From the NCBI GenBank assembly GCA_003483855.1, contig DMXP01000006.1:24280-88279 (forward strand): a DNA stretch of 64,000 nucleotides. The letters are read 5' to 3'. Position 1 is the first letter of the stretch; the number at the start of each line of letters is the position of its first letter. This document shows positions 19,464-59,541 of this stretch, piece by piece. The notes below the pieces were generated by a model. The model was not told the origin of the DNA. It did no database searches and saw only the letters and a program-made list of their open reading frames with translations. The position numbers and the translations under genes were made by a program. This DNA comes from Candidatus Yonathbacteria bacterium (lineage in GTDB: Bacteria > Patescibacteriota > Minisyncoccia > Phycocordibacterales > UBA1550).

Positions 19464-21419
19464 CTATAGAACCGCATCTTTTATTGGATATTCTTTTAGA
19501 ATCTTTTCCGCTTCTTTGCGTTTGCCGTTTGTCAGCAAAATCTGTAAGTAATACTTTTCCGCAGTCTCAAATTCTGGCGCAAGCTCAAACGCGCGTTTAA
19601 ATATCTCCTCAGATTTTGCTGTATCTTTCTTGCTGTAATACGCGCTAGCAAGCTCAAAAAGAATTGTTTGTTTCGTAGGTGAAAGTTCCACAGCTTTATT
19701 TAGGTACTCTATTCCTTTATCAATCTCGCCTGTCTTTACAAGATACGACCCTGCAAAAAGCTGGTATCTTGCGTCAGTTGGAAGACTCTCTGCTTGTTTT
19801 TCAAGCTCGCTTTTCGCCAAATCAATAAATTGTTTTTGCATCTCTGAAATGCCTTTTGAGGAATCAAAGGCTCCGGTTGAAAATGATGCGAGTTGTTCAC
19901 GAGCTTCCGCGGTTCCAAACGAATTATACGCAATAGTTCTTTTCATTAATTCCAAATTGTACACAGCGCCTCTTTCTGAACGCTCGGACAATGCTCGAAT
20001 GAGCGTTGTGTTTTGCATATAACCATTGTAGTTTACCGCGTAAACAAGAACGAGAGCGAGGACAACTACCCCGCCGGAAACGAATGTCGTCAGGTCTTCC
20101 TCCCCAACTTTAAATTTACTTTCAACTTTCAACGTTCCACTTTCTACTTGCGTGTGACACATACCCTCCACATACGCGAGGATTGTTCCAAAATAAATGA
20201 GCGAGGTAAGATTATCAAACACAAAAAGATTTTGGAAAAAATATCCGCCAAGGAGACCAGTGAGTACGCTTTTTTCTACAACCGACAGTTCGTCCGCACG
20301 ACGCCAGATGCAATATACAGCGCAAGCAAAAAGCGATATATACCCCAAAAGCCCGAGGATACCGCCTGCTATCAGCCAGTCAAAGAAAACATTGTGCGCG
20401 CGGTCAAACCACTGCTCCTGCCCCCACATATTTGGGTCATAATATTCATTGAATACATAATTAAAGTTCTCCATTCCCCACCCGAGAATTGGACGTTCTT
20501 TAAACCCTTCGTACGCCATCCCCCACACCATCACGCGCGCATTTTTAGAAAAATTGCTAATTGATATTTCTGAAAATCGTGCTAGGAGTGGCGTCTCTTT
20601 TACAAATGTTGTTTCTCGCGCTACGATAAATCCTCCGATAATTATCGCAATTGTGATCAGGGCTCCAATCGCCCACTTGCGTAGTGTTTTTCTCTGAGAC
20701 TCTAGCACAGCTATAAGTAGCGTTGCGAGACCAACACCAACCATAAGACCCAAAACTGCACCGCGAGTTCCTGTGTGATACAGAACGACTGCTTGCAAAA
20801 TGGCAATCGCGCTATAAATAAAAATTTTTGCACGTTGTCCAGCGTTAGTGAAACTCTCACGCATCATTAAAAATACAGCAATAAATATATTAAAGTATGC
20901 GTAAATACCAAGATATGAAGAATTGCCAAGAGAAGCGCTCACGCGGAAACCAACTGGGGAGCCGGGCAATTGCAGTAATGCGTAAATTGCCATAATGACA
21001 CCAACTCCCAGATGAAAGTTTAAATATTGACGCCATAGGTCACGCACCTTAAGCACGGTGGATGCAACTATGAAATATGCAAAGAGGTGAAAATAAGTGA
21101 CCACACCCTCCATGCGCTCAAAGTTTGACCAAAAGCTCTTTGTTGGATTCTCACCAAAAATTGCAGAGAGAGTAATAATTGCGAGAAATGCGCCTAGTGC
21201 TCCCAGAAGCCAGCTTCTGTTTGGACGATATGCTGGATCTATAAACGCGAGGACAATCCACGCGGAAAACATTATTTCAACAACAATACGGAACGCGAAG
21301 TTTTTTCCTACGATAAATGGGAAAAAGGTCGATTGACCCAAAACGATAAACGGGATAAAAGGCACCAAAATAAACCCCGTTAAAACCACCGCATTTGCTA
21401 AAATCTTGTGTAAATTCAT
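19464..21419 (-). CDS. O-antigen ligase/polymerase-like polytopic membrane protein with C-terminal TPR repeats
   Basis: About 12 TM helices with a Wzy_C-like loop region, then TPR-like repeats (…YLNKAVELSPTKQ…AFELAPEFETAEKYY…). 651 aa. Confidence 0.6.
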   Translation of the reverse strand: MNLHKILANAVVLTGFILVPFIPFIVLGQSTFFPFIVGKNFAFRIVVEIMFSAWIVLAFIDPAYRPNRSWLLGALGAFLAIITLSAIFGENPTKSFWSNFERMEGVVTYFHLFAYFIVASTVLKVRDLWRQYLNFHLGVGVIMAIYALLQLPGSPVGFRVSASLGNSSYLGIYAYFNIFIAVFLMMRESFTNAGQRAKIFIYSAIAILQAVVLYHTGTRGAVLGLMVGVGLATLLIAVLESQRKTLRKWAIGALITIAIIIGGFIVARETTFVKETPLLARFSEISISNFSKNARVMVWGMAYEGFKERPILGWGMENFNYVFNEYYDPNMWGQEQWFDRAHNVFFDWLIAGGILGLLGYISLFACAVYCIWRRADELSVVEKSVLTGLLGGYFFQNLFVFDNLTSLIYFGTILAYVEGMCHTQVESGTLKVESKFKVGEEDLTTFVSGGVVVLALVLVYAVNYNGYMQNTTLIRALSERSERGAVYNLELMKRTIAYNSFGTAEAREQLASFSTGAFDSSKGISEMQKQFIDLAKSELEKQAESLPTDARYQLFAGSYLVKTGEIDKGIEYLNKAVELSPTKQTILFELASAYYSKKDTAKSEEIFKRAFELAPEFETAEKYYLQILLTNGKRKEAEKILKEYPIKDAVL

Positions 21420-21425
21420 AGTGTC
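21382..21425. repeat. 44-bp direct repeat, copy 1 (includes the authentic start of the 19464-21419 gene)
   Basis: aaaaccaccgcatttgctaaaatcttgtgtaaattcataRtgtc is repeated at 22054-22097 with 1 mismatch. Confidence 0.85.
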
Positions 21426-21433
21426 TCAGTTGT

Positions 21434-21766
21434 CTAATTGCTGATTATTTCAACAATTTTTCTAATAATTTCTTTTGTTTTCCTTTCCTTCACATTTCCA
21501 ACCTTATACAAAATTAGACCTTTATCAGCAGTAAAAATTCTGTTTGGCCTTATGTTGCTATCCACCAAAAGATTGCCTTTTGCAAAATCAGTTCTCAGTA
21601 ATGAAATTGAGTATTTATCTTTTACAGTTTTACTGGTTATCTGACAAAGAATAACATCATCACCCTTGAGTCTGCTGACAACAAAAGCTGGCCTCTTTTT
21701 TATACTAGACAAATCAGAAAAAGGAAACGGGATAACCACAATGTCCCCTTTTATAAATTCTTCCAT
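21434..21766 (-). CDS. MazF/PemK-family endoribonuclease toxin
   Basis: GDIVVIPFPFSDLSSIKKRPAFVVS matches the MazF/PemK N-terminal signature; 110 aa. Confidence 0.7.
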   Translation of the reverse strand: MEEFIKGDIVVIPFPFSDLSSIKKRPAFVVSRLKGDDVILCQITSKTVKDKYSISLLRTDFAKGNLLVDSNIRPNRIFTADKGLILYKVGNVKERKTKEIIRKIVEIISN

Positions 21767-21987: not shown

Positions 21988-22053
21988 TTCTACATTATAG
22001 TGTAGTCTTATGGATAAGTAAACAAGGGCTCGGTTGTTGATATTTGCCACATC

Positions 22054-22097
22054 AAAACCACCGCATTTGCTAAAATCTTGTGTAAATTCATAATGTC
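22054..22097. repeat. 44-bp direct repeat, copy 2 (orphan duplicate of the membrane-gene 5' end, upstream of the TA cassette)
   Basis: Identical to 21382-21425 apart from 1 mismatch. It creates the spurious ORF 22008-22238, which begins MNLHKILANAVVL like the real gene. Confidence 0.85.
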
Positions 22098-47568: not shown

Positions 47569-48294
47569 ATGAAAGGAATTATTTTAGCAGGAGGGGCAGG
47601 AAAAAGACTGAGCCCCCTTACTCGGGTAACATCAAAACAGCTTTTACCTATCTACAACCGGCCGATGATCTATTACCCGCTTAATACACTCATTAAGGCT
47701 GGTATTAAAGAAATTTTAATTATTATCGCGCCCGAAAAGGCGGGTGAATTTTTGAATCTCCTTGGATCAGGAAAGGACTTTGGTGTAAAATTCACGTATG
47801 AAATTCAGGACAAGCCGAGGGGGCTCCCTGAGGCATTTATTATTGGGGAAAATTTTTTAGACAACGATGACGTGGTTATGATTTTAGGAGACAACATCTT
47901 TGAAAAAGATTTATCAGAAGATATTCGTTCATTCAAAAGCGGAGGTCGCGTTTTTGCGGTTGAGGTTGAAGACCCGGAACGCTCAGGAGTTGTTGAGTTT
48001 GATAAAAATATGAAGGTTCTTTCAATAGAGGAGAAACCTGAACATCCAAAAAGCAATTTTATTATTCCAGGGCTTTTTATTTACGATTCACGCGTTATTC
48101 AGTTCGCAAAAGAACTTGAACCGAGCAGGCGTGGGGAGCTTGAAATAACTGATATTCATAAAAAATATCTAGAACTAGGAGAACTTGACGTTAAAAAATT
48201 CTCGGGTGAATGGATTGACGCGGGAACGTTTGACTCACTCCTAAGGGCTAATCAGTTAGCTCAGGAGAAGTTGCACAAGAATTTGGTTATATAA
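47569..48294 (+). CDS. Glucose-1-phosphate nucleotidyltransferase (RmlA/RfbF-like, short form)
   Basis: MKGIILAGGAGKRLSPLT...QLLPIYNRPMIYYPL; 241 aa. Confidence 0.75.
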   Translation: MKGIILAGGAGKRLSPLTRVTSKQLLPIYNRPMIYYPLNTLIKAGIKEILIIIAPEKAGEFLNLLGSGKDFGVKFTYEIQDKPRGLPEAFIIGENFLDNDDVVMILGDNIFEKDLSEDIRSFKSGGRVFAVEVEDPERSGVVEFDKNMKVLSIEEKPEHPKSNFIIPGLFIYDSRVIQFAKELEPSRRGELEITDIHKKYLELGELDVKKFSGEWIDAGTFDSLLRANQLAQEKLHKNLVI

Positions 48295-48305
48295 AATCAA
48301 AACCA

Positions 48306-49181
48306 CTAAACAGCGGGAACAAATTCTCTAATATGGTCAACAATCTTTTTCTCCGCCTTCCATCCTAATTCACTTTTTGCCCGAGTCACGTCCACTGAGG
48401 AGCCCATTCGGTTCCCTTTGCGTTCAGGGAGCATTCTTATTTCTCCACCAAAGGCTTTTGCAATATCTATAATACTGTATCCATCCTCAGCACCGAGACC
48501 GAAGTCGTCACCTTCGCCATTTTCTCCAACTAAAATAAGCCCACTCACGATATCGTCGACGTGAGTAAAATTGCGCACCTGTGTGCCTGGTGCTACAACT
48601 GTGAGTGGTTCACCTTTTTTAAACTTCTCTTTAAAGAGCGCAATTAGTGTTGCGTATTGTCCTGTAGAAATTTCTCTCGGCCCATATACATTATAAAAAT
48701 AAGTTATGGCGTACGGTAATCCAAACCATACTCCATAATTTTGAACCAGGTCGGTGTTATTTGCTTTGGTCCATGCATAAGGGCTCTGATCTCTGCCGAG
48801 CCCTCCGTCGCCAAACTTGGTACTTGAGCCAGCGTAAACAATTTTTATTTTGTGCTTTCTACAAAACTCAAGTACAGTGAATGTTCCTGCTACGTTGGAT
48901 TCCCAAACTATAGGCAGATCAGCAAAACTTTGCTCTACGCGAGAATATTCACCGAGGTGATACACAAGATCAGGAATAAAATTGATTAGTTTCGCAATGT
49001 CCTTTGTGTGTCCCTCGATATACGTCGCACCAGGAATATGATTTTCTTTTGTGCCAGTGAAATAATTGTCTAGAGAATGCACATCATATCGCCCTTCTTG
49101 CACCAAGCGCTCAATAAGGTTGGACCCTATGAACCCAGCGCCACCGGTTACTAAGACTTTCTTTTTAGCTGTTTCTGCCAT
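48306..49181 (-). CDS. NAD-dependent epimerase/dehydratase, UDP-glucuronate decarboxylase (UXS)-like
   Basis: VLVTGGAGFIGSNL...LDNYFTG...; 291 aa. Confidence 0.7.
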   Translation of the reverse strand: MAETAKKKVLVTGGAGFIGSNLIERLVQEGRYDVHSLDNYFTGTKENHIPGATYIEGHTKDIAKLINFIPDLVYHLGEYSRVEQSFADLPIVWESNVAGTFTVLEFCRKHKIKIVYAGSSTKFGDGGLGRDQSPYAWTKANNTDLVQNYGVWFGLPYAITYFYNVYGPREISTGQYATLIALFKEKFKKGEPLTVVAPGTQVRNFTHVDDIVSGLILVGENGEGDDFGLGAEDGYSIIDIAKAFGGEIRMLPERKGNRMGSSVDVTRAKSELGWKAEKKIVDHIREFVPAV

Positions 49182-49483
49182 AATTTTAATAGTATAGCAC
49201 TACAAGTCCATAAAAAGACAGGCGACGAAGTCCGCGAAGGACAATTTTTTCATACAAAATCAGCAATGACACAATGCGAGGAGAATGTTGAATGTTGAAT
49301 GGGTGAGGAAGGGTGTTATTGCATACTACGGCATCTTTAATTTTGGGTATTCAAAACCACAAATTCTGTCAAATTTACGGTTTTGGAAACCATAAATTCC
49401 GCTAATTCCCCTAAATAGGTAGATTTACGGGAGTACCGCTCCCCGAAATTGACAAAATGTGGGGAGTTTGCTATCATAAAACT

Positions 49484-50617
49484 ATGAAGATCCCAAGAAT
49501 ATACAACAATATAGAAAAATATCTTCACCCGAACAAGGTTCTGGTTATTTTTGGCCCGCGACGAGTGGGCAAAACAACTCTCATTACTGATTTCCTTTCA
49601 ACATATAAAGGAAAATATCGCTTAGAGTCTGGGGATGACATTCGAGCGCGGGAGATCCTTGGTTCAGAAGACCTTTCTTTGCTAAAAGAATACGCAACGG
49701 GATACGACCTCATTGTCATCGACGAAGCGCAACGCATACCCAAGATCGGCTGGGGGCTAAAGTTGCTTGTTGACCATGTTCCGGGGATTCGTATCATCGC
49801 AACAGGATCATCATCGTTTGAACTTGCTGGACAAGTTGGAGAACCGCTTACCGGACGCAAACACACAATGACACTCTTCCCTCTTTCAGAAATTGAGCTA
49901 CTCGCCTATTATAACAACAATTCGTATGACCTTTCTTCAAAGCTTGCCGAGCGACTTGTGTTCGGTGGCTATCCAGAAGTTATTTCTGCAAAAAATACAC
50001 TTGAGCGAAAAGATGCTCTCGGTGAAATCGTCGGGTCGTATCTTCTCAAAGATATCATGGAGTTGGACCGTGTTCGCAATACAAAGATATTGAGTAACCT
50101 TGTTCGTCTCATTGCTTTTCAAATTGGAAACGAGGTTTCGTTGACCGAAATCGCGACAACCCTTGGCATAGACAGAAAAACGGTTGCTCGGTATATTGAC
50201 TTGCTTGAAAAATCCTTCATCCTCTACAATCTTCGTGGCTTTAGCCGTAACCTAAGAAAGGAAGTGACCAAAAAAAGCAAATATTACTTTTACGACATTG
50301 GTGTCCGTAATGCCATTATTTCAAACTTCAACAATCTTTCTGAGCGTGATGATGTGGGAGCGTTATGGGAAAATTTTTTAGTTATTGAGCGACTTAAAAC
50401 ACGCGTTTACAAAAACATCTCCGCGAATGACTACTTTTGGCGCACATGGGACCAAAACGAGGTTGACTTCGTTGAGGAACGCGAAGGAAAACTTTTTGGC
50501 TATGAATTTAAGTGGAAAAAGGCAAAAGCAAAAGAGCCAAAAAATTGGCGCGGAACATACCCGGAAGCAACTTACGGGGTGATCACTCCAGAAAATTATC
50601 TCCAAATATTAGAGTAG
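49484..50617 (+). CDS. AAA+ ATPase with DUF4143 (COG1373 family)
   Basis: Walker A FGPRRVGKTT and Walker B LIVIDEAQ, with a C-terminal DUF4143-like region. Start moved to MKIPRIY; the ORF could start at 49457. Confidence 0.65.
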   Translation: MKIPRIYNNIEKYLHPNKVLVIFGPRRVGKTTLITDFLSTYKGKYRLESGDDIRAREILGSEDLSLLKEYATGYDLIVIDEAQRIPKIGWGLKLLVDHVPGIRIIATGSSSFELAGQVGEPLTGRKHTMTLFPLSEIELLAYYNNNSYDLSSKLAERLVFGGYPEVISAKNTLERKDALGEIVGSYLLKDIMELDRVRNTKILSNLVRLIAFQIGNEVSLTEIATTLGIDRKTVARYIDLLEKSFILYNLRGFSRNLRKEVTKKSKYYFYDIGVRNAIISNFNNLSERDDVGALWENFLVIERLKTRVYKNISANDYFWRTWDQNEVDFVEEREGKLFGYEFKWKKAKAKEPKNWRGTYPEATYGVITPENYLQILE

Positions 50618-50733
50618 ATTGGAACAAAAACCCAACCATAATTGGAATGATTACGAGTGCCCATCTCAAATATGTTACATTACGCACGCCTATTGAAACA
50701 ACAAAAACGCTGGTATATGTATGGCAAACGTCT

Positions 50734-50801
50734 CCTTAAACCCTAAAGTCAAAAAGGCCGTTGAATACTTTTCCTTTCATTGCTTTGGCGATGAGAGACC
50801 A
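50734..50801. repeat. 68-bp direct repeat, copy 1 (orphan duplicate of the GT4 gene 3' end)
   Basis: ccttaaaccctaaagtcaaaaaggccgttgaatacttttcctttcattgctttggcgatgagMgacca is repeated at 51807-51874 with 1 mismatch. Confidence 0.85.
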
Positions 50802-50868
50802 GTTTATAAACTTTATAAACTATTGATTTTTTGACTAAGTTTATTAACTTTGATAAAATACGCTCATA

Positions 50869-51795
50869 ATGACAGTCCAGGAAAAATTAAAGATAATACA
50901 GAGAAATACTGGCTTGAGCCAAACAGAACTTAGCAAAAAACTCGGTGTGTCTCACGTTTCCTTTAGCAAGTGGTGGAATGGGCATACTTTGCCAAGGGGA
51001 AAATCCATTCTCTTGATAGACTCTCTTTATTTGGAAGTTACTGGTCAAAAAATTATTCCAAAGGATTACTTAACTGCTAAAAAGCAGGATCTTCTCAATT
51101 ATTCAAAAAAACATGGTGATATTATTAAAGAAATTATTTCTACCCCTGATATTAGAGATCAGTTTATGTTGAAACTCACCTATCATTCAAACAGCATAGA
51201 GGGTAGTACTCTTACAGAAAATGATACTGCAGCGATTCTTTTTGATAACGTGGCTCTGCCAAACAAGACACTTGTAGAGCAACTTGAAGCCAAGAACCAC
51301 CAAACAACGCTTTTGTATCTTTTTAATCATCTCGCTAAAAAGGGTGCTATTGATGAAGGTTTGATATTAAAACTGCACAGCATATTGATGAACGGTATTT
51401 ATGATGATGCTGGATTTTACCGTAGGCACGGTGTCCGTATTGTAGGAGCGAACATGCCAACAGCAAATTACTTGAAAGTTCCGGAGTTAATGAAGGATTT
51501 AGCGCGAAATATCAAAAAAGAAAAGGCGGATGCCGTGGCTCACGCATCTATAATTCACAGTATTTTTGAGAAAATTCATCCTTTTCCAGACGGTAACGGG
51601 CGAATTGGCAGATTGCTTATGATTGCAATGCTTTTGAAAGTCAATTTTGCCCCAGCTGTAATACACCAAGAAAATAAACGACTTTATTATACATACTTGA
51701 ATAGAGCGCAGACCAAAAATGACACTAGTCAATTGGAAGATTTTGTGTGTGACGCCATACTAGACGGATTTGAAATTTTAGAGAGAAAAATTTGA
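50869..51795 (+). CDS. Fic/Doc-family protein with N-terminal XRE-type HTH
   Basis: N-terminal ...LSQTELSKKLGVSHVSFSKW... (HTH). Fic motif HPFPDGNGRIGRLL. Confidence 0.8.
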   Translation: MTVQEKLKIIQRNTGLSQTELSKKLGVSHVSFSKWWNGHTLPRGKSILLIDSLYLEVTGQKIIPKDYLTAKKQDLLNYSKKHGDIIKEIISTPDIRDQFMLKLTYHSNSIEGSTLTENDTAAILFDNVALPNKTLVEQLEAKNHQTTLLYLFNHLAKKGAIDEGLILKLHSILMNGIYDDAGFYRRHGVRIVGANMPTANYLKVPELMKDLARNIKKEKADAVAHASIIHSIFEKIHPFPDGNGRIGRLLMIAMLLKVNFAPAVIHQENKRLYYTYLNRAQTKNDTSQLEDFVCDAILDGFEILERKI

Positions 51796-51806
51796 GGGAA
51801 CTAGAG

Positions 51807-51874
51807 CCTTAAACCCTAAAGTCAAAAAGGCCGTTGAATACTTTTCCTTTCATTGCTTTGGCGATGAGCGACCA
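51807..51874. repeat. 68-bp direct repeat, copy 2 (the authentic 3' end and stop of the GT4 gene)
   Basis: See copy 1. On the minus strand it encodes ...WSLIAKAMKGKVFNGLFDFRV*. Confidence 0.85.
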
Positions 51875-53064
51875 ATCGTATTTTTCGGCGACCAAGGTGC
51901 GTCCGTTTATGAATAGGCGGTTGCGGAGCGCTGGGTCGTCTATGAGGCGCTTTATTTGACGCGCGATGCTTTCTGGACTGTTTATATCCGCAAAAAGGCC
52001 AGTTGGCTCGTGATCTGGATTTTTGTCAGGATCAAAAAGGAAATCTGGGATACCTCCAACAGGTGTCGCAATAACGGGAATACCAGCCGCCATTGCCTCC
52101 AAAAATGAATTCCCATGTCCCTCCGAGCGCGAAGGTCTAATAAAAATATCAGACACCTTGAGATATTTTGGCATATCCTCGTGATGCACCTGACCGAGAA
52201 ATTGAACGCAATAATCATCAACGCCTTTTTCGCGAGCAAGGTTGCGAAGCATTTCCTCGTCGGGTCCTATGCCAAGAATTAAAAATTTAACATTGTGCGG
52301 AAGAAACACGAGCGCGCGAATTACCTCATCAACCGCATTTTTTGCAACCATACGCGACGTAGTAATTAGAAATATGTCGCCTGGATTCTTTCCAAGACTG
52401 TATTTCAATATTGAAAGCTCGTTCTCATAATATTCCTTTGCAAAGTGCTCCACGTTCACCGCATTTGGCACGACCTCGAGCGGTCCCACATATCCCATAT
52501 TGCGAGCGAACCCTGCAAGGTAGTTCGAAATAGTTTGAATGAAGTCCGCTCGCGCAAAAACTCGCTGTAGAAGCGGAAACGCAAACTGCAAGCGGTGTTT
52601 GATATATTCTATAGGGTCCCCCTCTTGAAGCGTAAGCAAAAAACGAACGTTTGGATTTCGCATTTTGAAAAAGAGCGCCGAGAAACCCGCATAATTTGCC
52701 ATCATTGCCCAAATGCCGTCATAGGCGTTTTTTTGTGAAGCGACTGCGCTTTTAGAAAACCCCAAATAGGAAAAAAATATTTATTGACTGAAAGTGGAAA
52801 ACGCGACAGGTCTGCAATATTTGGGTCCTTTGTTGCAAACCCTACGCGATGAACGTTCACGTTTCCTATTCGCTCAAACTTTGGGAGCGTTGAATCAAAA
52901 CGGAGCGTTACCATATCAAACACATAATCATCTCCCGAGGTTCGGTCAGTAATCTCTTTTATCGCCACCTCGGCTCCCGCAACTACATCAGGATAATACG
53001 CAAGGGAAAATATGAGTATTCGTTTCACTGATATAAGTTTATATAGAAATACCGCAAAAAACAA
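51809..53064 (-). pseudogene. GT4-family glycosyltransferase interrupted by a frameshift in an A7 (plus-strand T7) homopolymer at 52728-52734
   Basis: The N-terminal GT4 domain ORF (52702-53064, ...ILIFSLAYYPDVVAGAEVAIKEI...) and the C-terminal ORF (51809-52765, ...EGHGNSFLEAMAAGIPVIATPVGG...) overlap in different frames. One extra A (A8) would fuse them as ...SLHKKNAYDGIW.... Confidence 0.6.
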
Positions 53065-53070
53065 GCCGAG

Positions 53071-53340
53071 TTATTCAAAAAGGTCAGAGCGTGTTCCTGT
53101 GCGCACAAGGATGATATCATCGTCATCGTATTTCCAAATCAAGAGCAAGTCAAATTCTATATGACATTCCCAGCACCCTTCGTATTCCCCATGTAACTTG
53201 TGAAGTTTTGATGCTAAAGGAACATTTTTACCGAGACGAAGGCATTCGATCATCTCATAAAGCACCGCCACATCACGATTGTGGCGCACAATGCGTTTTA
53301 GATCACGATTAAATATTCCCGAAGGAAAAATCTTTCTCAT
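53071..53340 (-). CDS. yafQ: YafQ-family (RelE/ParE superfamily) toxin
   Basis: ...HKLHGEYEGCWECHIEFDLLLIWKYDDDDIILVRTGTRSDLF aligns with E. coli YafQ ...HPLQGSWKGYRDAHVEPDWILIYK...RTGTHAALF. The ATG overlaps the dinJ stop (ATGA). Confidence 0.65.
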   Translation of the reverse strand: MRKIFPSGIFNRDLKRIVRHNRDVAVLYEMIECLRLGKNVPLASKLHKLHGEYEGCWECHIEFDLLLIWKYDDDDIILVRTGTRSDLFE

Positions 53341-53621
53341 ACATGTGCGCGCCAATTCTTACCGAGTATATCAGTAAACATTGCTTCAGCTGAAGAATAT
53401 GATTTGAGATTTTCCCCAGACTTAGCATTTGCAATCGCTTTGCGCGTTTCGGCGTTTGGAATATTAAGAGAAAAAGGGATTCCTTTGTCGGTGGCAATAC
53501 GGCGATAAAATACATTGATAGCTTCAGACGGAGATATTCCTATTTTATGCAATACTGTTTCAGCCTTTTTTTTAACCGAAGGTTCTATACGAGCTCTCAC
53601 AAAAGATGTTTTTGTAGTCAT
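53337..53621 (-). CDS. dinJ: DinJ/RelB-family antitoxin
   Basis: MTTKTSFVRARIEPSVKKKAETVLHKIGISPSEAINVFYRRIATDKGIPFSL matches DinJ ...FVRARIDEDLK...ALPFDL. Start moved to the internal Met. Confidence 0.65.
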   Translation of the reverse strand: MTTKTSFVRARIEPSVKKKAETVLHKIGISPSEAINVFYRRIATDKGIPFSLNIPNAETRKAIANAKSGENLKSYSSAEAMFTDILGKNWRAHV

Positions 53622-53674
53622 ATGAGTATTGTAGCACATTTGTGCCACAATGCAAGAATTGAAATACGTGCGAA

Positions 53675-55051
53675 TTAGTGCGGTTCATTATCGTCAGTTT
53701 CCTCAATTATTTCAAAATCGTCTGCGTTTATGGTTGTCTTTTGTTCGATATTTTTAGTAAGGCGGATACCCGCTAGCGCAAGTGCTCCCAGAAACGCGGA
53801 GCCTACATACCATGGCCACAAACCTCTCTCCTGTCGTGGAGTAACTGAAGTGGCTGGCGCTTCAGAAATTGCATTCAGAGCGGACGCTTCCTGAAGTGAT
53901 GGCGCTTGCGGTGCCACACGAGTTTCCGCGCTTGCTACAACCTTCGTTTTTTCGGCAGTTTTCAAAACAGGAGCAGGGGCTTGCGAAGAAACTGCTTCAA
54001 CCTTTATTGGAACGCTTGTTCCATTTGGAAAACGAAGTTCGGGAATAATGCCAACAGGTGTGGCGAGCCCTGTTACCTCGCTGGCGAATGTTACGCTTCT
54101 GCGCGCTCCGAGAATTGTATTTTTTGGAAATGTAAAAATTTTTTCACCGCTTGCAACCTGCCAACTGGAAATATCAAGCTCGTCAGCGCCATTATTTTGA
54201 ATCGTAAAAAATGAACGCGTATTGTCACCCCCACTACTCAAAGAAAGATTCGGCAAAACAACGCGCACGAGCATCTTGTCAGTTGCAGTTAAACTTCCTG
54301 AGACAACATCGAGCACTGCGGTGTATTCACCGGGATAATAATATGTGTGCGAAACACTTTCGCCCACAGCCGACGCTCCATCGCCAAACGACCACGTTGT
54401 TTGCACGGCTCTACCAAAATTATTTTCCAGCCCAGCGATTTTCCCTTCAAAAATTATTGGCGCGCCTGCTAGCACCACACGAGTTTGCGGACCTGCCTGA
54501 GCTGTCACTTGTGGTGCTGTCTGTGTTGATGCTGTGTTTGTAGTTGTAGTTGTGTTTGTGGTTGTATTTGTTGCAACCGACTCATTTGCGCTTTGCGAAA
54601 CTGAATTCGCGACACCTGGTGTTGGTAACGCGTTCACCCATTCACCTGCCGTTATTCTTTGATAGCTCTCGCCTGCGTCAATACTTCCCCACCCGATTTG
54701 ATCAACATCTTTACCTTTTGAATCTCTAACGCGTATGGTGTTGGATTCAGTGAGCGTTATGTCTGTAACGATGTCAGAATTACTATATGAATTGCGAGAA
54801 ATTAAAAAATAACTATTTGCCTTGATTATTTTTCCATTTAGCTGGGTGCTTGATACCAATGAACCAAAACTGCTACCAGTAGCTGTTTTTCTTTGAATAT
54901 ACCAACCAGTCAAATCAACATCGGAACTACCAGAGTTATAAAGTTCTATAAATCTTTCATTTATCGGAGAAATTTGAACTTCATTAACAAACACTGTCGC
55001 AGAGACCGTCTGCGCGGAAAATAACATTAAAATAAAAATAATTTTTTTCAT
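53675..55051 (-). CDS. Secreted/membrane-anchored lamin-tail-domain (LTD) protein with Thr-rich linker and C-terminal TM anchor
   Basis: Signal-like MKKIIFILMLFSAQTVSA, then LTD motif VFVNEVQISPINERFIELYNSGSSDVDLTGWYI, a TNTTTNTTTTTNT linker and a C-terminal hydrophobic helix. Start moved to the internal Met (ATG at 55051). Confidence 0.6.
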   Translation of the reverse strand: MKKIIFILMLFSAQTVSATVFVNEVQISPINERFIELYNSGSSDVDLTGWYIQRKTATGSSFGSLVSSTQLNGKIIKANSYFLISRNSYSNSDIVTDITLTESNTIRVRDSKGKDVDQIGWGSIDAGESYQRITAGEWVNALPTPGVANSVSQSANESVATNTTTNTTTTTNTASTQTAPQVTAQAGPQTRVVLAGAPIIFEGKIAGLENNFGRAVQTTWSFGDGASAVGESVSHTYYYPGEYTAVLDVVSGSLTATDKMLVRVVLPNLSLSSGGDNTRSFFTIQNNGADELDISSWQVASGEKIFTFPKNTILGARRSVTFASEVTGLATPVGIIPELRFPNGTSVPIKVEAVSSQAPAPVLKTAEKTKVVASAETRVAPQAPSLQEASALNAISEAPATSVTPRQERGLWPWYVGSAFLGALALAGIRLTKNIEQKTTINADDFEIIEETDDNEPH

Positions 55052-57186: not shown

Positions 57187-58185
57187 TTATTTCACCTTCT
57201 TCTTATTAAGCATCATGAGAATAAGCCCAACCATTTTGTCTTTGTGCGTGGGGTCGCTCTCAGCAACTAGAAGTGTGATTGCCGTGAGTGCTGGCGGTGT
57301 GATACGCGTCGTATCAAGAACTTTTGCTTTTGCGAGGAACCACACGAAAGCATACGCGCCACTCCGTTTGTTGCCATCAATGAACGGATGATTTTTGATA
57401 ACGAAGTATAAGAAATGCGCCGCCTTCTCCTCGACGGTTGGGTACATATCTTTACCACCAAATGCTTGCGCGACATTACCAATGATCCCCGCGAGGCTTC
57501 CTCGCTCGCGCTCAGTCGCAAAAAGGTCAGTAGCTTCGCCTTTCGCAATGAGTGATTCTTTCAAAGTATCAAGCGCACCACCAAACATATCTGCGGTAAT
57601 TTTGACAGATTTTTTTGTCGCGCCTTTCGTCATCAGAGCATCTTTGTCGTACGCATCAAGTGAGAGCCATGTGTCAGAGAAAAGCGTGATGAGCTCAAGA
57701 ATACTCTCGGTGTCCATAGCTGTTCCAGCAGAAAGTAGCGCCTTCACATCAGCGACAGCTTTCAAAAAACCATCATAGTTTTTAGCAATGCGTGACTTGT
57801 TTATGGTGTAGCCATCAACAATATGCGCGCGGAGTGTTTTGGTTGCCCACTGGCGAAACTGAGTGGCAGTCTTTGAGTTGACTCTGTAGCCAACAGAGAG
57901 GATTGCGTCTAGGTTATAGTACTCGATAATACGTTCTACTTTACGTTTTCCTTCAGTTTGAACTGTTGCATTTTTTGCAACAGTTGACCTCGTGTCAAGT
58001 TCACCCTCTTGGTAGATATTTTTAAGATGGCGTGAGACAACAGACTTATCACGTCCAAAAACCTCAGCGATTTGATCGAGCGTCGCCCACACCGTCTCCC
58101 TACCAAAATCCCCACGAAGCTCAATAGCTCCCGACTTTGCCTGGTAGATAACGACTTCCTTTTTTATTTTTTGCAGTTTCATCAT
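57187..58185 (-). CDS. RhuM-family N-domain fused to a Fic/Doc domain
   Basis: ...IEYYNLDAILSVGYRVNSKTATQFRQWATKTL (RhuM) and HPFIDGNKRSGAYAF (Fic/Doc motif). Confidence 0.7.
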   Translation of the reverse strand: MMKLQKIKKEVVIYQAKSGAIELRGDFGRETVWATLDQIAEVFGRDKSVVSRHLKNIYQEGELDTRSTVAKNATVQTEGKRKVERIIEYYNLDAILSVGYRVNSKTATQFRQWATKTLRAHIVDGYTINKSRIAKNYDGFLKAVADVKALLSAGTAMDTESILELITLFSDTWLSLDAYDKDALMTKGATKKSVKITADMFGGALDTLKESLIAKGEATDLFATERERGSLAGIIGNVAQAFGGKDMYPTVEEKAAHFLYFVIKNHPFIDGNKRSGAYAFVWFLAKAKVLDTTRITPPALTAITLLVAESDPTHKDKMVGLILMMLNKKKVK

Positions 58186-58305
58186 TTCTAATTATATCAC
58201 AGAGGCACCAATTATTTCTGTACCTGTATGTGCCATTGTCATCTACACAAATTCGCAATATGCGTTTTTTGCATATTCTATATTAGAAATTCTATATTCT
58301 ATATT

Positions 58306-59541
58306 CTATTCTTTCAAGAGCGCCTCCACTGTATACAAATTCTTTGGGTCCCAGAGGAACCATGAGTTGAGCCCAGAGTCATAGGTTGCTTGTATTTGAG
58401 CGCGGACTTCTGTTGCGCCATAGGTGCCACCATAATTAAAATCCTGAAGCCACGGACGGAGTTTGTTCTTGTCGTATGCTTCTTTTGTATAAAGCGCGGG
58501 CGTGGATGTGCCGATGCGCTGTGCTCCAAGGTGGAGCACAGGTGTCGTCGTTGCAACTGCGCGCTCCACAGCGCGACTCATTGAGAAGTGGATCACATCA
58601 TACACGTGTTCATTTGGATTCTTCCATCCATTAAAATTTGGCGGGTAGTGAGACGGATACACCATGGGAGAGATGTAATCAAAATAAGGAAGCGCGCGCT
58701 CTAGCACCTGCCCTATGTTTAGGTCGTCGTTGTTTGTCGCAGTCATTCCAAAGAGATCCGCGGAAAGTTTTGCGCCAGTTGGGCTAAGCGCGCCGTGAAG
58801 GTGTGCGAAAAAATGCTCGAGTGCCTCGTCTTTGCTAATACCATGACCCCACGAATAATCAACATCTTTCATCGGGCCATCTGAAGGAAAACGAATGTAA
58901 TCAAAGTTGAGCTCATCAAAGCCCATCGCGTATGCCTCTTTTCCAAGGGCAACAATGTAATCCCAATATGGTTTCGCAGAGACGTCTATAAAAGAAAGCC
59001 CCTTGAAGTCCTTCCACACTGTGCCGTCGCTTTTTTTGAGCACTGCAAGCTCTGGATGAAGCTTTGTGTAGTACGGGTCTTGGAACACTGTGATGCGCGC
59101 GATCGTATAGATTCCTTTTTCGTGAAGTCGCGCGAGAAATTTTTTAAGATCTTTGGTGCGACATCCTCCACCATTATTACCTTTGAGAATCGGGTCCACG
59201 GCATCAAAAGCAATAGTTCCGCTATAATCCTTGATATCAATAATGATGCTGTTCACCTCGGTAGTGTCCGCAATATGCACAAGTTTTTCACGAAACAATG
59301 ATGTGCTTGCGGCGCAGGCAGTCATATATATTGCCTTCACGGCCTTTGGAGTTTCTATATGAGTAACTATAATTTCTGACTCCCCCTTTACAGTGACTGT
59401 AGTGGTAGCTGTAGTGCTTGTTGCTGACACTGTGTCTACTCTATACTCGACTGAAGAAATTGCTGGTATAAAAAAATAAAAGACGGAGAAAGCTCCGACC
59501 ATGGCTACACCTAAAGCAAGAATGTTTCTATTTCGTGTCAC
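58306..59541 (-). CDS. Membrane-anchored putative glycoside hydrolase (DUF4015/GHL TIM-barrel family)
   Basis: N-terminal TM, then ...AVKAIYMT...NSIIIDIKDYSGTIAFD... typical of COG1306/DUF4015. Confidence 0.5.
   Translation of the reverse strand: MTRNRNILALGVAMVGAFSVFYFFIPAISSVEYRVDTVSATSTTATTTVTVKGESEIIVTHIETPKAVKAIYMTACAASTSLFREKLVHIADTTEVNSIIIDIKDYSGTIAFDAVDPILKGNNGGGCRTKDLKKFLARLHEKGIYTIARITVFQDPYYTKLHPELAVLKKSDGTVWKDFKGLSFIDVSAKPYWDYIVALGKEAYAMGFDELNFDYIRFPSDGPMKDVDYSWGHGISKDEALEHFFAHLHGALSPTGAKLSADLFGMTATNNDDLNIGQVLERALPYFDYISPMVYPSHYPPNFNGWKNPNEHVYDVIHFSMSRAVERAVATTTPVLHLGAQRIGTSTPALYTKEAYDKNKLRPWLQDFNYGGTYGATEVRAQIQATYDSGLNSWFLWDPKNLYTVEALLKE

Follow-up and report, generated by a model that had tools for sequence, protein, structure and literature searches.

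We analysed a 64-kb stretch of DNA (hereafter the window) from Candidatus Yonathbacteria, a member of the Patescibacteria, in which a small cassette with a single gene, encoding a fused helix-turn-helix (HTH) and Fic protein, lies at the 3' end of a family 4 glycosyltransferase (GT4) gene and is bracketed by two near-identical copies of that gene end. The cassette is an insertion relative to an empty site in a sister lineage, and the same cassette occurs at the same gene end in a second lineage, with a switch of alleles inside the repeat. Our findings support a model, to which we assign a probability of roughly one half, where the cassette would have entered by a recombinase-free, homology-anchored insertion through the GT4 3' end, leaving behind a displaced, orphan gene end.

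The two direct repeats occupy positions 50734-50801 and 51807-51874 of the window. Each is 68 nucleotides (nt) long, they agree at 67 of 68 positions, with a start-to-start spacing of 1073 nt, and the pair (BLAST E = 1e-32) is the longest repeat within the window. The sole mismatch, A at 50796 in the left copy versus C at 51869 in the right copy, is synonymous in the GT4 frame (TCT/TCG). An earlier note, made from the letters alone, had described 68-bp copies with one mismatch around a 1005-bp insert, and the coordinates, lengths and mismatch all agree with it; it had further taken the duplicated segment for the last 65 coding nt of the GT4 gene plus the stop. The 3'-terminal identity and the stop hold, and the count does not: the repeat consists of 63 coding nt (21 codons), the stop codon (51809-51811 in the right copy) and 2 nt past it.

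The repeat-cassette structure is real and no assembly chimera. Positions 40869-61795 (20.9 kb) are 100% identical in two MEGAHIT assemblies, from different runs and samples, and in one Joint Genome Institute (JGI) assembly. According to the contig prefix both MEGAHIT assemblies were made with k = 127 (the k of the JGI assembler is not given) and, as this exceeds the 68-nt repeat, reads must cover each copy plus both of its flanks. In addition, the Logan k31 unitigs break at 50763, 50766 and 51836, where a duplicated 68-mer with one mismatch predicts. These unitigs are also what an artefact could draw upon, namely that the shared repeat let two strain variants be joined into one path, or else a chromosome with the empty site and a free circle of 1073 bp: the repeats exceed k = 31, the unitigs break inside them, and the k31 graph alone cannot tell the integrated form from an empty site with a circle. 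Nonetheless, we hold such an artefact to be very unlikely, given that three independent assemblies of different samples return the same 20.9-kb sequence, with k127 spanning repeat and flanks in two of them, that the A/C mismatch ties each copy to its own flanks, and that the cassette-repeat-GT4 junction is independently carried by another contig (L111, see below). The chimeric contig that the earlier note had raised as a refutation is therefore not found.

The right repeat copy (minus strand) is the 3' terminus of the resident GT4 frame and is contiguous with that gene (51809-53028, minus strand). In this gene a poly-A run at 52728-52734 is A7, versus A8 in the sister lineage and in L111, and the ensuing -1 frameshift splits the gene into open reading frames (ORFs) of 108 and 298 aa, where relatives encode 405 aa. 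The frameshift is present in all three assemblies and indicates either a pseudogene or a slippage-prone, phase-variable tract. The left copy (minus strand) is still joined to native GT4 downstream sequence (50727-50733) and, since this flank is kept, is the displaced native GT4 terminus, now orphaned. The comparison rests on the closest sister lineage, a GW2011_GWA1_44_13-like Ca. Yonathbacteria, whose GT4 gene is intact (405 aa) and 92% identical at the nucleotide level. In at least 11 contigs of this lineage, from several samples, nothing but a short spacer separates the GT4 stop from an epimerase gene, and window positions 50727-50803 match the GT4 end and downstream flank of this lineage at 76 of 77 positions. 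Given its absence from these 11 sister-lineage contigs, the Fic cassette is a true insertion relative to the empty site. Thus, the empty site that the earlier note had proposed to search for exists, and the bracketing by a duplicated GT4 3' terminus, as first described, resolves into an orphan left copy and a resident right copy.

When JGI metagenomes were scanned with the leading 35 nt of the repeat, only two loci came back, the contig L111 (3572 nt) among them; the window's own JGI contig was missed, so that this collection is incomplete for the organism. L111 is, from the repeat onward, 99% identical to the empty sister lineage (GT4 and toxin-antitoxin genes). To the left of the repeat, it holds the final 688 nt of the cassette, free of substitutions against the window's sequence and with one 27-nt deletion. 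Its right junction is that of the window, GGGAACTAGAG followed by the repeat; because this junction is identical on a different GT4 background, the 11-nt spacer GGGAACTAGAG between the Fic stop and the right repeat (51796-51806, plus strand) belongs to the transferred unit. At repeat position 40, C is shared by L111 and both window copies, against T in each of the 11 empty contigs; starting with position 63, L111 agrees with the sister lineage in its alleles, and the left window copy is identical to the L111 repeat over 70 nt. These alleles indicate that the cassette arrived with at least 40 nt of the repeat and that the exchange stopped before position 63. Thus, from the shared cassette, the shared right junction and the allele switch, the repeat acted as a recombination arm shared between the lineages, rather than being the sign of a dedicated site-specific system. 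The mismatch within the window (A63 in the orphan, C63 in the resident copy) fits a single crossover between a donor with A63 and a resident with C63; a point mutation after insertion, somewhere in the 136 nt of repeat, is possible and less likely, because the 688-nt cassette segment holds zero substitutions. The exchange of the cassette between the two lineages appears to be recent. The 27-nt deletion in L111 (at ~313-314, corresponding to window 51405-51431) is in frame, is bounded by TG microhomology and removes the core residues DDAGFYRRH; with nine residues of the conserved core lost, the L111 Fic allele is probably inactivated.

With respect to terminus displacement, then, an intact end and an orphan bracket foreign DNA absent from relatives, and an allele mosaic lies inside the repeat. 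In the model that we favour, insertion would depend on the homologous recombination of the host, with the conserved GT4 3' end as homology arm, and not on a cassette-encoded or site-specific recombinase. Two routes can be envisaged. A linear fragment bearing the cassette and a GT4 end could recombine on the GT4 side, with an illegitimate joint a short distance within the resident copy; or else a circle made up of the cassette and one repeat copy could integrate by a single crossover. By either route an intact gene end would come to stand beside the cassette, and the old end would be displaced to its far side as an orphan. Through this same arm the cassette could then pass between diverged lineages, and successive events would produce arrays of orphan termini. 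A dependence on RecA, the choice of route and the origin of the first duplication are points that we infer.

Flanking repeats are a recurrent feature of the family to which the cassette gene belongs. This Fic family has 214 confirmed matches in a species-representative genome collection, most at 60-67% identity, in Patescibacteria-type genomes. We compared 80 family loci, each from a different species. Within 1 kb on either side of the gene, flanking direct repeats of at least 40 bits were detected at 10 of the 61 loci that could be tested; control positions taken from these loci gave 1 of 114 (Fisher p = 1.2e-4). When 574 kb were scanned all against all, a repeat pair was seen to bracket the Fic gene at 17 loci and, among the repeat pairs with at least 90% identity, 9 of 14 do so. 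The repeats range from about 20 to 211 nt and duplicate very different segments: the start of the downstream gene plus 43 nt upstream of it (L032, 95/95 identical), the 5' end of a signal-peptide gene (L056, 94 nt, 89%), the 3' end of a histidine kinase gene (L039, three copies, 69-114 nt), terminator-like hairpins (L096 and L094, 20-58 nt) and even the Fic promoter itself with the upstream terminator (L075, 92 nt, 91/92).

Several of these loci are informative as to how such repeats may arise. In L039 (3755-6190) the order is kinase, HTH-Fic, second copy, RhuM-Fic, third copy, the copies being kinase 3' ends; all three have different start points, share a near-identical 69-nt core and have diverged over the last 45 nt. 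This locus reads as an array of orphan termini, left by successive insertions at one gene end. In L205 (511-707 and 1744-1848), a cassette 84% identical in nucleotides to that of the window stands between an orphan and an intact terminus of an LTD gene; the two termini have clearly diverged and are about 70% identical, as read from the alignment. Similarly, an orphan 3' end of an LTD/PKD surface-protein gene lies beside the cassette in L106 (5985-6136). The diverged copies in L039 and L205 show signs of being diverged alleles rather than products of a simple target duplication. As for possible vehicles, the best match of the family in IMG/VR is 37% identical, and all matches among GenBank phages and PLSDB plasmids fall below 60% identity, those listed being below 40%. 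The literature searched for Fic cassettes with direct repeats in the candidate phyla radiation (CPR) returned nothing relevant.

The mobility machinery was sought in several ways. Among the precomputed Pfam calls for positions ~193-61795 of the window (~61.6 of 64 kb) there is no integrase, resolvase or transposase, which answers, for those positions, the search for integrase or recombinase genes that the earlier note had suggested. Likewise, no recombinase was found among 10 ORFs tested from repeat-bounded multi-gene inserts of 8 other genomes; these ORFs include Fic paralogues, a RhuM-Fic, an AEP-TOTE primase-helicase and a peptidase. No 8-mer, A/T runs excepted, is common to three or more of the repeats, as an attachment (att) core would be. 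No transfer RNA or transfer-messenger RNA that could be an integration target occurs in the window, and no Rfam family in 48000-54000. The cassette ends, GTTTATAAACTTT... and ...GGGAACTAGAG, are not inverted relative to each other, and a scan for inverted repeats found none there. An insertion sequence (IS), a miniature inverted-repeat transposable element or a DDE transposon was rejected on the lack of terminal inverted repeats and on the variable duplication length (about 20-211 nt). An integron gene cassette was rejected too: the insert has its own promoter and operators, only 11 nt after the stop and no attC, and positions ~193-61795 hold no integrase.

What was found is, in part, also the architecture of a site-specific element, since target-duplicating direct repeats stand at both ends; a recombinase and a shared att core were not found. 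The cassette could thus resemble a cis-mobilizable element (CIME) or a pseudo staphylococcal cassette chromosome (pseudo-SCC) element, whose repeats would be attL and attR, whose tyrosine or serine recombinase would be encoded elsewhere, and whose circle would carry an attP copy of the GT4 end. Integration into a gene 3' end that is thereby restored is what the locus displays, the alleles of L111 and the window fit a crossover inside the repeat, and L039 exhibits tandem accretion at a single gene end. Yet neither the cassette, nor the annotated part of the window, nor the 10 ORFs of other inserts include a recombinase gene; the repeats, which may be coding 5' ends, coding 3' ends, terminators or even the Fic promoter, have no common core, and the boundaries differ among the three copies of L039. 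We therefore judge this explanation improbable, and it keeps some weight because only 64 kb of the genome are in view.

Returning to homology-anchored insertion, a number of observations weigh against it. The far joint lies exactly where the functional part of the cassette has its edge, at 0 nt from operator 1 in the window and at 2 nt past the stop in L039, and homology among cassettes always begins at the same palindrome; such defined ends look more like those of a discrete element than like random illegitimate joints. Some repeats are perfect or nearly so and end abruptly (L032 and L075), as a true target-site duplication would. Microhomology at the joint amounts to GT, 2 nt only (ancestral CCA|GTC versus the cassette start GTTTAT), which is too little to be informative. 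An exact-protein lookup (GT4, ATPase, epimerase) for an empty site in the window's own lineage returned the occupied form only. The L111 contig starts inside the Fic gene and covers the right junction only, so that the repeat-flanked form is not visible in it. Finally, other insertions and deletions of the window (an ATPase gene, a RhuM-Fic gene and an extra RelB/YafQ pair, see below) have no long repeats.

Part of this evidence would be accommodated by a discrete mobile unit inserted by cut-and-fill or by copy-choice, making a long and variable true target duplication. In the former version a transposase acting in trans would make staggered breaks, as in the IS1634 group of IS4; in the latter, template switching would leave the chromosome, copy the cassette and re-enter 20-200 nt behind the exit. 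Homologous recombination through the repeat would then only spread the finished structure. The limits of homology with six other contexts (50800-50812 and 51788-51795) do coincide with the inner edge of the repeat; several repeats are near-perfect or perfect with abrupt ends (67/68 in the window, besides L032 and L075), and the repeats vary in length from about 20 to 211 nt and share no motif. On the other hand, the cassette lacks terminal inverted repeats, neither the annotation of ~193-61795 nor the 10 ORFs tested from other repeat-bounded inserts include a transposase, and the diverged, mosaic copies in L039 and L205 are unexpected from a fresh duplication; moreover, an identical right junction in two lineages together with the allele switch needs homologous exchange anyway. 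We consider this account unlikely, while granting it appreciable weight.

The cassette itself (50802-51806, plus strand, 1005 bp between the repeat copies) has a GC content of 0.36, versus 0.45 for the GT4 gene. It is a discrete, conserved, self-contained unit with its own promoter and operators. In the six contexts mentioned (L022, L026, L027, L106, L107 and L205), nucleotide homology is at 75-86% identity and always extends from the first operator (starting at 50800-50812) to the stop codon (ending at 51788-51795). The only ORF of the insert is the HTH-Fic gene (50869-51795, plus strand), encoding 308 aa with an N-terminal XRE-type HTH. The protein matches the Fic domain of Pfam (PF02661) over residues 161-255 with 71.4 bits (cut-off 24; E = 1.1e-19), and HTH_3 with 21.8 bits, slightly below the 23-bit cut-off. 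The active-site motif HPFPDGNGRIGR at residues 237-248 fits HxFx(D/E)GNGRxxR and aligns, in a PDB alignment, with C. difficile Fic and human FICD. Hence the single-gene HTH-Fic accessory cassette of the earlier note is borne out by one ORF, a Pfam match and the Fic motif. N-terminal to the Fic core, on the same chain, SNSIEG (residues 107-112) fits the inhibitory-helix motif (S/T)xxxE(G/N) and aligns with TVAIEG of human FICD (phmmer). Together, the two motifs point to a class II, auto-inhibited AMP-transferase, an assignment made by family membership.

Among the PADLOC profiles, the protein matches PDC-S04 (7.7e-44) and SoFic (5.5e-33). The NCBIfam equivalog for SoFic (NF046030) gives 34.8 bits, below its cut-off of 550, and TIGR02613 (mobile mystery protein B) gives 37.1 bits, below its cut-off of 124.4. 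Given the PADLOC matches and the position of the gene among defence candidates and toxin-antitoxin genes, the cassette is most likely a toxin-like or abortive-infection/addiction module, a SoFic-type defence; we infer this function from sequence.

The regulatory region is also conserved. The tandem tttataaac motif seen upstream of the gene in the earlier note lies at 50803-50820 and is operator 1, a copy of a family-conserved palindrome, AACTTTATAAAGTT. The operator 1 region (50802-50822, plus strand) consists of the palindrome GTTTATAAAC (50802-50811) overlapping AACTTTATAAACTA (50809-50822). It is followed by a putative sigma-70-type promoter (50831-50859, plus strand; TTGACT-17-TAAAAT with an extended -10 TG), and operator 2, AAGTTTATTAACTT (50837-50850, plus strand), lies within the spacer between -35 and -10. 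One palindrome copy thus sits upstream of the -35 hexamer and the other in the promoter spacer. With up to 2 mismatches allowed, 81 of 82 family loci have the 14-nt palindrome AACTTTATAAAGTT at least once in the 140 nt preceding the gene, and 70 of 82 have it twice; elsewhere in the same loci only 12 matches are found in 549 kb. This arrangement suggests that the cassette is repressed by its own N-terminal HTH. In the window the -10 hexamer ends 9 nt before the ATG (50854-50871), other family members having longer leaders. With so short a gap there is no room for a Shine-Dalgarno sequence, and the Fic transcript probably has little or no leader. In L075 (3879-3970/4965-5056) and L082 (1475-1496/2785-2806) the Fic promoter-operator segment is found again downstream of the gene, with no Fic ORF behind it. 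Such extra promoter copies, and the 12 stray operator matches, may be scars of lost cassettes or additional sites of the regulon.

These operator-bearing ends lend themselves to a bolder hypothesis, which we find very improbable: the HTH-Fic gene and its operator end could form an autonomous, recombinase-free element of Patescibacteria that promotes its own capture with long, variable duplications. The repressor bound at the terminal palindrome might define or protect a DNA end, or Fic might modify a host topoisomerase or recombination protein. If true, this would account for both the conserved cassette ends and the repeat enrichment across the family.

The surroundings of the cassette are themselves variable. 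The sources of the window's proteins name them as Candidatus Yonathbacteria or Parcubacteria, and these sources are groundwater metagenomes. A glycan-biosynthesis cluster at ~22-49 kb (epimerases, glycosyltransferases, methyltransferases, nucleotidyl-transferases and a MatE-type flippase) is bordered by a Wzy_C-TPR gene (19464-21419) on one side and by the GT4 gene on the other. The borders of this strain-variable cluster are surrounded by selfish or defence genes (PemK/MazF, AbiEii, HicA, RelB/YafQ, an AAA_14/DUF4143 ATPase, HTH-Fic and RhuM-Fic/Doc), and both terminus duplications of the window sit there, at Wzy_C and at GT4. The duplication at Wzy_C, which the earlier note had announced as another example, consists of 51-nt repeats (21375-21425 and 22047-22097, minus strand, 92% identical) that copy the start of the Wzy_C-TPR gene. 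They bracket a PemK/MazF toxin gene (21434-21766) with a small ORF upstream, a toxin-antitoxin cassette inserted at codon 15. In a relative with 89% nucleotide identity (L112, 3326-4045), both the MazF cassette and the repeat are present (43 nt, 86%), so that this insertion is old; with the closest relative occupied, no empty site was found for it. Synteny with L112 is lost exactly where the orphan copy has its outer edge; at that point L112 has an extra HAD/PMM gene.

Other insertions of the window were found to be of a different kind. An AAA_14/DUF4143 ATPase (49197-50726, ORF 49484-50617, plus strand; PADLOC PDC-S01, 1.9e-143) is absent from the sister lineage; it was inserted separately from Fic, between the GT4 downstream flank and the epimerase gene. 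A homologue occurs in L205, in opposite orientation, beside the related Fic cassette. A RhuM-Fic/Doc gene (57192-58320; PADLOC PDC-S23, 2.1e-114) lies between the DUF4015 and TraG/VirD4-like ATPase genes, at a point where the sister lineage has 48 nt and no gene; RhuM-Fic adjoins HTH-Fic also in L039. In the sister lineage (L012-L021, e.g. L013 4788-5958), the interval between the LTD gene and GT4 holds two RelB/YafQ pairs in tandem, with no direct repeats around them, and the window has one pair (53071-53648). No long flanking repeats of note were found in the window at the ATPase, RhuM-Fic, RelB/YafQ or AbiE cassettes. A third repeat pair of the window (3483-3539/7078-7134) was rejected as a cassette boundary, being a 57-nt intergenic palindromic element. 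Its copies are 96% identical, contain the internal palindrome CCCGGTTAAAT...ATTTAACTGGG and look like a repeated terminator or a repetitive extragenic palindromic (REP)-like sequence; the pair flanks the housekeeping genes gatB and obg, with a HicA toxin gene and small ORFs in between.

Recognisable mobile elements are few in the tiny genomes of Patescibacteria (CPR), and the route by which these bacteria gain accessory and defence genes is poorly understood. The present case documents an empty site, its occupied counterpart in another lineage and a crossover placed within 23 nt. Between lineages 7-8% apart, a gene of defence type moved by means of only ~68 nt of a conserved gene end, and of 80 species-level genomes about a fifth have repeat-bounded Fic inserts, with no recombinase among the ORFs tested. 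Should the pattern be general, orphaned gene ends could be searched for by computer as a sign of recombinase-free gain where variable loci for surface glycans have their borders; it would further mean that streamlined genomes put up with an insertion into a gene end thanks to the duplication of that end. For a CPR Fic family that is very widespread, the conserved double operator offers a model of regulation open to direct testing. Three things make the case valuable: a transfer between lineages that has been mapped, a pattern that recurs across Patescibacteria, and an operator architecture that is conserved.

Several known systems invite comparison. SoFic is a single-gene Fic anti-phage defence that acts by AMPylation (PMC12249575). 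Like SoFic and PDC-S04, the cassette protein is a stand-alone Fic protein with the canonical HxFx(D/E)GNGRxxR, an inhibitory glutamate helix, strong PADLOC matches and defence neighbours; unlike SoFic, it carries an N-terminal XRE-HTH, is preceded by the conserved double operator and scores far below the SoFic equivalog cut-off. In the collections searched, moreover, the family is confined to Patescibacteria-type genomes. To the mobile mystery proteins A and B (TIGR02612/TIGR02613) there is resemblance only, HTH and Fic being fused in the cassette protein. Insertion sequences of the IS1634/IS1549 group generate variable direct repeats of tens to hundreds of bp and encode a DDE transposase between terminal inverted repeats. 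The cassette is like them in its long, variable flanking repeats, but has neither the transposase nor the inverted repeats. CIMEs are recombinase-less islets bounded by att repeats at a gene 3' end. The likeness includes the small insert without recombinase, direct repeats that restore the 3' end of the target and the possibility of tandem accretion; in contrast, the repeats of the Fic family have no att core, no cognate integrase was found, and their length and position vary by locus.

The closest parallels are processes rather than elements. In Campbell-type insertion-duplication, used for mutagenesis of naturally transformable bacteria, a circle with a short chromosomal segment integrates and the product is target segment, insert, target segment, as here; a left copy with the distal allele of the donor and a right copy with that of the resident also fit a single crossover in 68 nt. 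Differently from that process, the cassette is known here in integrated form, and a 68-nt arm is short for RecA-dependent integration; the mechanism also leaves unexplained the origin of the first circle of cassette plus terminus. C-terminal displacement with orphan 3' ends, as described for Rhs and contact-dependent growth inhibition (CDI) as well as Vibrio type VI secretion system (T6SS) effector-immunity loci, has been attributed to homology-facilitated illegitimate recombination (PMC5361080, citing Jackson 2009, Prudhomme 2002 and de Vries & Wackernagel 2002). There too, a conserved gene is the homology arm, foreign DNA comes to lie beside it and the old end is orphaned on the far side; repeated events give orphan arrays (as apparently in L039), and no dedicated recombinase takes part. 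On the other hand, the new terminus here is near-identical to the old one (67/68) and not a toxin tip of another kind, what has been brought in is a stand-alone gene of unrelated nature in a Patescibacterium, and the duplicated segment can also be a 5' terminus, a terminator or a promoter. Overall, the outcome is a variant of known processes, C-terminal displacement and insertion-duplication, and not a new class of element.

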